IMG/VR virus record: IMGVR_UViG_2713896906_000007
Location: 1 to 40,423 of that record
Reading direction: 5' to 3' (one strand)
Length of the DNA: 40,423 bases
DNA from: a virus
Taxonomy: Duplodnaviria > Heunggongvirae > Uroviricota > Caudoviricetes
In this document: piece by piece, positions 32,409 through 33,346 of the stretch
Position numbering within the stretch: the first letter of the stretch is position 1
Layout: every line of letters starts with the position of its first letter
The notes under the pieces: model-generated
The model's database searches: none
Told to the model about the DNA's origin: nothing
What the model saw: the letters and a program-made list of their open reading frames with translations, nothing else
Position numbers and translations under genes: made by a program

Positions 32409-33346
32409 CCCCTGAATCCTGCCGGGATCTGGCTGTAGTCCACGTTGTCGTAACTGGCTTTGAAGTACGGGTCTTCGCGTTTTTCGGTGTACGTGCTGAC
32501 GGACGGCGATAAGCGCAGGGAAAGCTCATCCCATTTTTCCCGCAGCTTCGACGGGCTGAGCACGTTACGGCACCAGAACGGATCGCGACTGACGCGGCTG
32601 TACATCTCGCAGATTTGTTTATGAGTACGACCATCCTGCACACACATCAGGCGAATTTCGTTTGCCCAGGCTGTCCAGTTCGGTTCTTTGGGACGAACCA
32701 CCTCGCCGTCACATTCGGCGGCCTGCTCGTACAGGGCGATGATTTTTTTCCAGAGCCACTGTGCGCAGGTCAAATCATCCTGCGTTCCCCACTGGCGCTT
32801 TTTAGGGCTGAATACAACCGCATCAGGATGGCGAGTTAAAAACTCCTGTTCAGCCGTCTGCGTGTCCGGTTGCGAAGCGTCCGGACGAGAAGTTTTTTTA
32901 TCTGACGGATCATGTTTTGATTTTACTGACGGATCCCCGCCAGATTCTGACGGGTGAAAACCCGCTTTTTTGCCAGATTTCGACGCATCAAATTTTGACG
33001 GGTCAGATTTTGATGCGTCAGATTTTGACGGGTCAGAATCTGACAGTTGAGAAAATGCCGCTGCCTGAAGCTTCGCAACGTTAAGCTGATAAACATTCGA
33101 CGCATTGCGGTTACCCTGGCGACGCGCCTTACGCGTTAACCAGCCTTCTGCTTCCAGCCGTGCGATAGCCGTTCTGACGGTACTCATTCCCGCGCCAATC
33201 TGGCGGGCAATGGTTTCAATTGATGGCCAGCACACACCTTCGTCATTACTGAAATCAGCCAGGCGGGCCATAATTGCCACGCTGGATAATTTCATGCCTG
33301 ATGCAGCGCAACCATCCCATACATAGCCGGTTAATTTAGTGCTCAT
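32405..33346 (-). CDS. Replication initiator / replisome organiser (O-like, YfdO-like) with internal repeat linker
   Basis: N-terminal HTH (...SIETIARQIGAGMSTVRTAIARLEAEGWL) and a central repetitive DPSKSD/ASKSD linker encoded by the iteron-like repeats. Confidence 0.7.
   Translation of the reverse strand: MSTKLTGYVWDGCAASGMKLSSVAIMARLADFSNDEGVCWPSIETIARQIGAGMSTVRTAIARLEAEGWLTRKARRQGNRNASNVYQLNVAKLQAAAFSQLSDSDPSKSDASKSDPSKFDASKSGKKAGFHPSESGGDPSVKSKHDPSDKKTSRPDASQPDTQTAEQEFLTRHPDAVVFSPKKRQWGTQDDLTCAQWLWKKIIALYEQAAECDGEVVRPKEPNWTAWANEIRLMCVQDGRTHKQICEMYSRVSRDPFWCRNVLSPSKLREKWDELSLRLSPSVSTYTEKREDPYFKASYDNVDYSQIPAGFRG
32894..33049. repeat. Iteron-like 15-bp tandem repeats (~8 copies) inside the replication gene; candidate origin
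   Basis: Repeated unit approximately (a/t)TTTGACGG(g/a)TCAGA, e.g. 32990-33004, 33005-33019, 33020-33034. Analogous to lambda ori iterons within O. Confidence 0.5.

Follow-up and report, generated by a model that had tools for sequence, protein, structure and literature searches.

In-gene repeats as the probable replication origin of an SfIV/SfII-like lambdoid prophage

The DNA analysed here is a 40,423-nucleotide stretch of a virus of the Caudoviricetes (IMG/VR record IMGVR_UViG_2713896906_000007, positions 1 to 40,423; the window, meaning this whole stretch), a lambdoid prophage near-identical to Shigella phages SfIV and SfII as well as several Escherichia coli phages. In its replication initiator gene (32405-33346, minus strand; 942 bp, 313 aa) the linker is encoded by short repeats, and these repeats are very probably the replication origin of the prophage, built on the plan of the phage lambda origin (ori-lambda) and placed inside the gene of its own initiator. 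A preliminary description of the same DNA had suggested as much, and the sequence comparisons reported here support it. The repeats are real and clustered, they lie in an O-like gene of the early-right operon, and they are constrained at the DNA level; they vary with the N-terminal domain of the initiator and move with it in mosaic genes; lambda O, run as a control, has its iterons in the equivalent place; and the repeat sets of lambda O, P22 gene 18 and phage L gene 18 have already been taken as origins (PMC8022706, PMC7466680). Three comparative tests (synonymous conservation, N-domain-linked repeats and module exchange) favour a cis-acting initiator-binding array.

The core TGACGGRTC starts at eight positions on the plus strand (32903, 32927, 32948, 32981, 32996, 33011, 33026 and 33041), with spacings of 24, 21, 33, 15, 15, 15 and 15 bp, every one a multiple of 3. 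All eight of the 15-bp copies listed in the preliminary description were recovered, but only the last five cores make up a true 15-bp tandem array, the other three copies being spaced boxes. Tandem Repeats Finder called the array at 32974-33037 (period: 15; copies: 4.3; matches: 81%; score: 86), with an alternative call of period 30 (copies: 2.1; matches: 88%; score: 100). The repeats occupy nt 297-458 of the initiator gene on the minus (gene) strand, where the reading frame across them runs SDSDPSKSDASKSDPSKFDASKS...FHPSESGGDPSVKSKHDPSDKK and translates into the DPSKS/DASKS-type peptide repeat that had been described.

The five tandem units (32975-33049, minus strand) are CAACTGTCAGATTCT, GACCCGTCAAAATCT, GACGCATCAAAATCT, GACCCGTCAAAATTT and GATGCGTCGAAATCT. 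Their gene-strand consensus is GAC-NCN-TCA-AAA-TCT, translated as (D/Q)xS(K/D)S, and each combines a conserved core, TCA(A/G)AATCTG(A), with a variable spacer of 4-5 nt. Beyond a further spacer of 18 bp lie three boxes with the motif GAYCCGTCAG (32888-32956), all read on the minus strand: box 1 (32936-32956; CACCCGTCAGAATCTGGCGGG), a good core copy that starts 33 bp past the last tandem unit; box 2 (32912-32935; GATCCGTCAGTAAAATCAAAACAT), 21 bp past box 1 and with a GATC at 32932-32935; and box 3 (32888-32911; GATCCGTCAGATAAAAAAACTTCT), 24 bp past box 2 and with a GATC at 32908-32911 and an A-run. Two overlapping registers of dyad symmetry can be read in the copies, TGAY-NN-RTCA and TCA-N5-TGA. 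The best-conserved sequence is TCAAAATCTG in the tandem units and GATCCGTCAG in boxes 2 and 3; the unit logo is partly biased, as units were chosen by their match to the core.

A scan of the window for TGAYSSRTCA (mismatches: ≤1) returned 31 matches, 7 of them inside 133 bp, and none of 100 shuffles reached 31. TCARAATCTGR had 13 matches in the window, with 7 of the 13 in 32940-33043; the totals in shuffles had a mean of 3.35 and a maximum of 8. Neither scan found a second cluster of the repeat motif elsewhere in the 40-kb window. Within the gene, AT content peaks in the 40 bp at 32890-32929 (gene nt 418-457; 72.5% AT, GC 27.5%), a level reached by just 2.9% of 40-mers across the window. This candidate DNA-unwinding region lies at the promoter-distal end of the repeats, overlaps boxes 2 and 3 and includes the T-run aagttttttta (32890-32900), the AT-rich stretch pointed out in the preliminary description.

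The initiator gene is 98-100% identical in SfIV, SfII and the E. coli phages, in which it is labelled 'DNA replication protein O' or 'primosomal protein', and it matches PHROG 391 ('replication initiation O-like') end to end (1.6e-135). By homology it reads as an O-like mosaic with an HTH_36 N-terminal domain (N-domain), the repeat-coded linker, a lambda-O-type C-terminal domain (C-domain) and a DnaT-like tail. The winged-helix N-domain (aa 1 to ~97; 33056-33346, minus strand) is the presumed origin-binding domain and was assigned from Pfam HTH_36 (PF13730; 4.2e-11, aa 23-70, 42.9 bits against a gathering cut-off of 25), with weaker Pfam matches to GntR, HTH_29, PaaX and MarR within aa 23-82; comparison by sequence with solved structures gave just weak MarR/PaaX winged-helix matches and nothing past Pfam. 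The C-domain (aa ~170-277; 32516-32839, minus strand) was assigned from BLASTP against lambda O (aa 78-270; E=1e-25, 30% identity overall), in which initiator aa 175-277 align with lambda O 180-270 and similarity is highest at PDAVVFS...WGTQDDLT...NVLSPSKLREKWDEL against PDAAIQS...WGTAEDLT...NVLSPAKLRDKWTQL of lambda O. The N-domain had no similarity to lambda O, the BLASTP alignment beginning only at aa 70, and the initiator had no Pfam match at E ≤ 0.01 to Phage_rep_O (PF04492) and no Pfam match to Rep_3. Because the C-domain aligns with lambda O while the N-domain does not and Phage_rep_O is unmatched, we interpret the initiator as a mosaic O, in which a different origin-binding domain is joined to a lambda-type C-domain. 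The matches to PHROG 391, HTH_36 and the lambda O C-domain bear out the earlier placement of the repeats inside a replication initiator gene.

Constraint on the repeats was assessed across 70 homologous genes, with N-domains 68-92% identical in amino acid sequence to that of the window, from prophages of many Enterobacterales genera and from phages phiNP, Eeyore, YeP1 and a Klebsiella phage. All 70 have 15-bp units (2-8 per gene) straight after the winged-helix domain, and 245 of the 314 neighbouring unit pairs are spaced at 15 bp. Among serine codons of the linker, 984 of 1176 (84%) are TCA or TCT, compared with 21% in the N-domain and 27% in the C-domain, and the serine codon AGT, whose AT content is the same, drops from 16% to 2% in the linker; lysine is encoded by AAA in 98% of linker cases versus ~60% elsewhere. 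An anchored comparison of 71 genes gave the conserved block TTT-GAC-CCG-YCA-GAA-TCT-GGN-GGG-GAT-CCG-TCA-GTA-AAN-TCA-AAA-NNN-GAT-CCA-TCA, the third codon positions of which are 0.87-1.00 conserved (four-fold degenerate valine codon GTA: 1.00; TCA: 1.00), the exceptions being the first glycine codon (0.46) and the GGG, AAN, AAA and NNN codons (0.59-0.76). The GAT-CCG-TCA-GTA of box 2 is invariant or near-invariant in the 71 genes, at synonymous positions too (third positions of these and similar codons: 0.93-1.00), and where the block has amino-acid swaps (S/P, D/H) the remaining two codon bases are unchanged. Synonymous-codon identity, defined as use of the same codon among codons with an identical amino acid, had a mean of 0.43 between the window and the 70 homologs in the N-domain (range: 0.29-0.56), which is near saturation, and a mean of 0.88 in the 19-codon box block. 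As codon usage, per-position conservation and synonymous-codon identity all point the same way, this comparison shows purifying selection on the array as DNA, beyond the needs of the peptide.

The GATC sites of boxes 3 and 2 (32908-32911 and 32932-32935), 24 bp apart, are kept in ~87% of homologs and in 71 of 71 genes, respectively, and the prophage has a Dam-like methyltransferase of its own (31261-31947). This enzyme and the conserved GATC pair may place the putative origin under methylation or SeqA control.

The repeats also follow the type of N-domain. Seven other N-domain types, of other HTH_36-type or DnaD-like families, each have 3-5 repeats of their own at the same position: CATCGGGTCAAAATG in mEp460_4F5 (spacing 23-24 bp, one gap of 46), TATGCCATCTGATGGCA in Klebsiella RAH1 (23/22/24 bp), GGTGCAGGAGATTCAC in ST64B and mEp460 (21/24 bp, other gaps 42-45), CCTAGTGACAAAATGTCACC in Vibrio D67 (21/24 bp), AGGTATGCCAGCAGATAGCACAGG in Aggregatibacter S1249 (21/21/24 bp), GGGGTGGGGCAGGAGCTGCCC in an Stx2a phage (L010; 21/24 bp) and GGTCAAATTCCGACC in Vibrio Va_PF430-3 (17/22 bp). 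Spacing in these types is thus mostly 21-24 bp, and several values are not multiples of 3; repeats spaced in that way fall into different reading frames, which rules them out as repeats of a peptide. Two mosaic genes divide the initiator at the same place. mEp460_4F5 matches only window positions 32405-32901 (97%), the C-terminal half, and its N-domain and repeats are unrelated; phiNP matches only 32868-33345 (83%), with the same N-domain and repeats and a DnaD-like C-domain. The alignments meet in a short common segment, CTTCTYGTCCGGNNGCNTCGCAACC (module junction, 32866-32901), directly after box 3, which is common to genes that differ on either side and divides an N-domain-plus-origin module from a C-terminal module. 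Because both mosaics swap N-domain and repeats together, we read the two as one specificity module that is exchanged as a block. This relation matches the one known for lambda O and its iterons.

In Klebsiella RAH1, ST64B, mEp460 and Vibrio D67 the iterons are followed closely on their 3' side by another short repeat, (A/T)GAACCAGTCA, with two or three copies spaced 17 and 12 bp (locus positions 1808-1848 in RAH1; 1810-1849 in ST64B and mEp460; 1768-1795 in D67). These four phages represent three families with mutually unrelated iterons, ST64B and mEp460 sharing theirs. The repeat does not occur in the window and may represent a common element independent of initiator specificity.

Lambda O was put through the same tools as a positive control, and its four annotated iterons were recovered at nt 349-433 of the 900-nt gene (spacing: 20/24/23), with the most AT-rich 40-mer (80% AT, nt 436-475) beginning 3 nt after iteron 4. 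The comparison with the ori region of lambda O that the preliminary description had called for therefore gave an equivalent linker position and a promoter-distal AT-rich tract, together with an N-domain that is not of the lambda O type.

On the origin reading, the HTH_36 N-domain would bind the eight sites, probably in dimeric form at the TGAY-NN-RTCA / TCA-N5-TGA dyads, and protein and sites would form an O-some-like nucleoprotein complex. Transcription of the cro-cII-rep operon would traverse the site, the complex would open the adjacent AT-rich segment (32890-32929), and the lambda-O-type C-domain would then bring the host DnaB helicase. Recruitment of the helicase is presumed to be direct, possibly via the DnaT-like tail, because no P, DnaC or helicase gene is adjacent. 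Lambdoid origins combine O-binding iterons with an AT-rich tract, midway along gene O, and the pair of iterons closest to that tract suffices for unwinding and in vitro replication (PMC7466680). By analogy with lambda, and as conjecture, the boxes at 21/24 bp beside the AT-rich tract may be core sites and the number-variable 15-bp units accessory ones.

Several observations weigh against this interpretation. Iterons of O-type origins are typically spaced 20-24 bp apart, and a 15-bp period is unusual; it sets neighbouring sites ~150 degrees apart on the helix, on nearly opposite faces, so simultaneous occupancy of all tandem units by dimers is doubtful. Both TGAYNNRTCA and TCA-N5-TGA are dyadic, which leaves the exact binding register ambiguous, and the second half-site is TGT in Providencia and Proteus homologs, where the units are TCAAAATCTGT. 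The AT content of the candidate unwinding stretch is modest, 72.5% over 40 bp where lambda has 80%, and boxes 2 and 3 break up the stretch. No description of such an origin was found in the limited set of literature accessible, and the SfIV genome paper is silent on any origin. The later steps of the mechanism are conjecture, as the operon yielded no identifiable helicase loader.

Other accounts of the repeats have to explain the same data. Slippage could have generated a low-complexity peptide linker, (D-x-S-K-S)n, without DNA function, and two facts fit this: no spacing in this subfamily departs from a multiple of 3, and homologs have anywhere from 2 to 8 units, the kind of variation that slippage would produce in a tolerant linker. 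Yet concerted evolution by slippage could homogenise units within one genome but would not fix the same codons in Providencia, Proteus, Yersinia, Pantoea, Rahnella and Escherichia alike when the neighbouring domain is drifting. A mere peptide linker, which we hold to be highly improbable, was rejected on codon usage (Ser and Lys codons fixed as TCA/TCT and AAA across genera), on third-position conservation, S/P and D/H changes leaving the other two codon bases intact, and on the excess of synonymous identity in the box block over the flanking N-domain; the spacings of the sister families, several not multiples of 3, speak against it as well. Action at the RNA level, through mRNA structure, a translational pause element or an antisense RNA, appears the least probable of the explanations considered. 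Compared with shuffles, the single strand has the more favourable fold (z = -3.98), but this is expected of any dyad-repeat array. A weak terminator-like hairpin, CGGGTGAAAACCCG then CTTTTTTGCC (32951-32974, plus strand), with a T-run and antisense to the initiator gene, sits in the spacer that separates box 1 from the tandem units, but homologs do not retain the hairpin (32951-32964); Rfam gave no match, no sigma-70-like promoter site was found in the array region, and an RNA role would leave the variation of the repeats with the DNA-binding domain unexplained.

More plausible than either of these, though still improbable, is a cis-acting protein-binding array with another role and the true origin elsewhere: an autoregulatory or copy-control (handcuffing) site, an array for another phage or host protein (Dam/SeqA at the GATCs), or a recombination hotspot for module exchange. 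Conservation at the DNA level shows function and not which function, the two GATC sites are conserved, and the module junction adjoins the array; moreover, the two extra iterons of Stx phages, weakly bound yet required, show that iteron-like sites can be accessory (PMC7466680). Against such a role, the 40-kb window has no second motif cluster, the repeats track N-domain type and not host, which argues against a host factor, and their position and flanking AT-rich tract match those of proven origins. We accordingly favour the replication origin over these alternatives.

The early-right operon is ordered cI-like repressor (34593-35285, plus strand), cro-like gene, cII-like gene, small open reading frame and rep, and downstream of rep come PerC-like, Dam-like methyltransferase, LexA-like, RusA and KilA-like genes. 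Among the operon and downstream genes (29723-32408) there is no P, DnaC or helicase gene, the gene next to rep being PerC-like, and the corresponding region of the SfIV record has no loader annotation. The C-domain is homologous to the P-interacting domain of lambda O, yet the operon is without a P-like gene. Upstream of rep, a 59-aa open reading frame with a complete DUF4222 (Pfam 8.6e-19; 33336-33515, minus strand) overlaps out of frame a 112-aa open reading frame (33356-33694, minus strand; gp40 in the SfIV record). Both have PHROG families, and they are either overlapping genes, or the product of a frameshift, or one of the two is a spurious call.

The initiator ends in the nonapeptide SQIPAGFRG (32408-32434, minus strand), a candidate docking motif for a host replication protein. 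E. coli DnaT (dnaT from NC_000913.3) likewise ends in a nonapeptide, SQIPPGFRG, identical to it at 8 of 9 positions. In DnaT the final 20 residues form a highly flexible tail (PMC5778457), to which the searched passages of a 2026 preprimosome structure paper assign no partner. The motif [IVP]-P-x-G-F-R-[GS] is found at the C-terminal end of 43 of the 70 homologous initiators, across two unrelated C-domains. Downstream of these 43 a loader or helicase gene was found in none, Dam in 16 and PerC in 15; the next gene is IstB/DnaC-like in 3 and lambda P in 1 of the 27 tail-less initiators. The pattern of tail versus loader is suggestive only, most tail-less initiators also being without a loader, and the tail may be a host-docking motif that replaces P. 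Taken further, the prophage might have a loader-free origin-initiator pair, in which the tail copies that of DnaT, docks on DnaT's host partner and delivers DnaB-DnaC at the opened origin (DnaT mimicry in place of lambda P), and in which the iterons, packed in frame at 15 bp, serve as a dual code, so that copy number and with it initiator loading can change by slippage without a break in the frame. We offer this as a tentative proposal, possible but on the whole doubtful.

Matches to the initiator in the plasmid database PLSDB comprised prophages embedded in records of very large size, a 16-kb lambdoid fragment with a DnaC-like gene, and a 15-kb circle resembling e14 (OR902851). The circular 15-kb record OR902851.1 is e14-like in its mcrA, invertase and icd fragment, and its copy of the N-domain is 80% identical. 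Two E. coli chromosomes (L068 and L086) have the first 79 aa of the N-domain fused in frame to unrelated sequence in a 456-aa open reading frame. This fusion and the OR902851.1 copy look like remnants of the replication module described here. The GenBank record of phiP27 (AJ298298, 10334-11260) has an HTH_36 N-domain 60% identical to that of the window, then TCAGAWTCTGAA-type 15-bp repeats and then a DnaC-like gene. The origin of 'P27' has been described as lambda-like with six iterons (PMC7466680), in contrast to the phiP27 record, and the two may be different phages sharing a name.

The analysis provides a candidate origin at ~32.89-33.05 kb and candidate recognition sequences for a widespread module, present in the serotype-converting Shigella phages and in prophages of Shigella, E. 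coli and other Enterobacterales. These could serve annotation, the building of compatible or incompatible replicons, and interference with phage replication by origin decoys. Iterons inside an O-like gene are a textbook concept, and we regard the array as a probable member of the lambda-type, O-embedded origins and not as a new kind of system. Less ordinary are the tight in-frame packing at 15 bp, a DNA function that overrides synonymous drift (dual coding), and a lambda O C-domain without P and with a DnaT-like tail, which hints at possible loader-independent helicase recruitment.

Among known origins, ori-lambda and those of 434, 82, phi80 and 933W-type Stx phages are alike in having repeats in the linker-coding part of the initiator gene, an AT-rich tract on the promoter-distal side of the repeats, dyad-symmetric repeats with an A-tract centre (lambda: TCCCTCAAAACGAGGGA; window: GTCAAAATCTGAC), a homologous C-domain (E=1e-25) and a gene placed in the cro-cII-rep early-right operon. 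The window differs from lambda in its HTH_36-type N-domain, which cannot be aligned with lambda O, in unrelated site sequences, in packing five of eight sites in frame at 15 bp as against ~20-24 bp, and in having a PerC-like gene next in place of P; its initiator also ends in a DnaT-like tail, which is missing from lambda O. Compared with the lambda type as a whole, the window has at least three direct repeats in the gene between the DNA-binding domain and the C-domain, a promoter-distal AT-rich tract, repeats that are specific to the N-domain and exchanged with it, and sequence constraint beyond the peptide. Of the features of the lambda gpO family it has C-domain homology, and lacks the Phage_rep_O N-domain and an adjacent P-type loader.

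The initiators of P22 and phage L (gene 18 in both) are distant O-like proteins whose genes each hold their own repeats, and in phage L the repeat region, six imprecise copies of an 11-bp unit, was assigned as the likely origin (PMC8022706) by reasoning similar to ours; the 11-bp unit gives precedent for a short repeat. Both differ in repeat sequences and N-domains, and have their own DnaB-type helicase (gene 12) adjacent, unlike the window prophage. Iteron plasmids (RepA/RepE/pi, 17-22-bp iterons) share direct repeats, a winged-helix initiator and an adjoining AT-rich unwinding element; their iterons lie outside the rep gene and their initiator is a tandem WH1-WH2 protein (Rep_3), whereas the window has repeats inside the gene and no Rep_3 match. 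The SfV/ST64B/mEp460-type initiators share the extreme C-terminus ...DNVDYSQIP(A/T)GFRG and the operon order DUF4222-like open reading frame, rep, PerC-like gene and Dam, with no loader gene; they differ in an HTH_36 N-domain of ~39% identity and in their GGTGCAGGAGATTCAC repeats at 21/24 bp.

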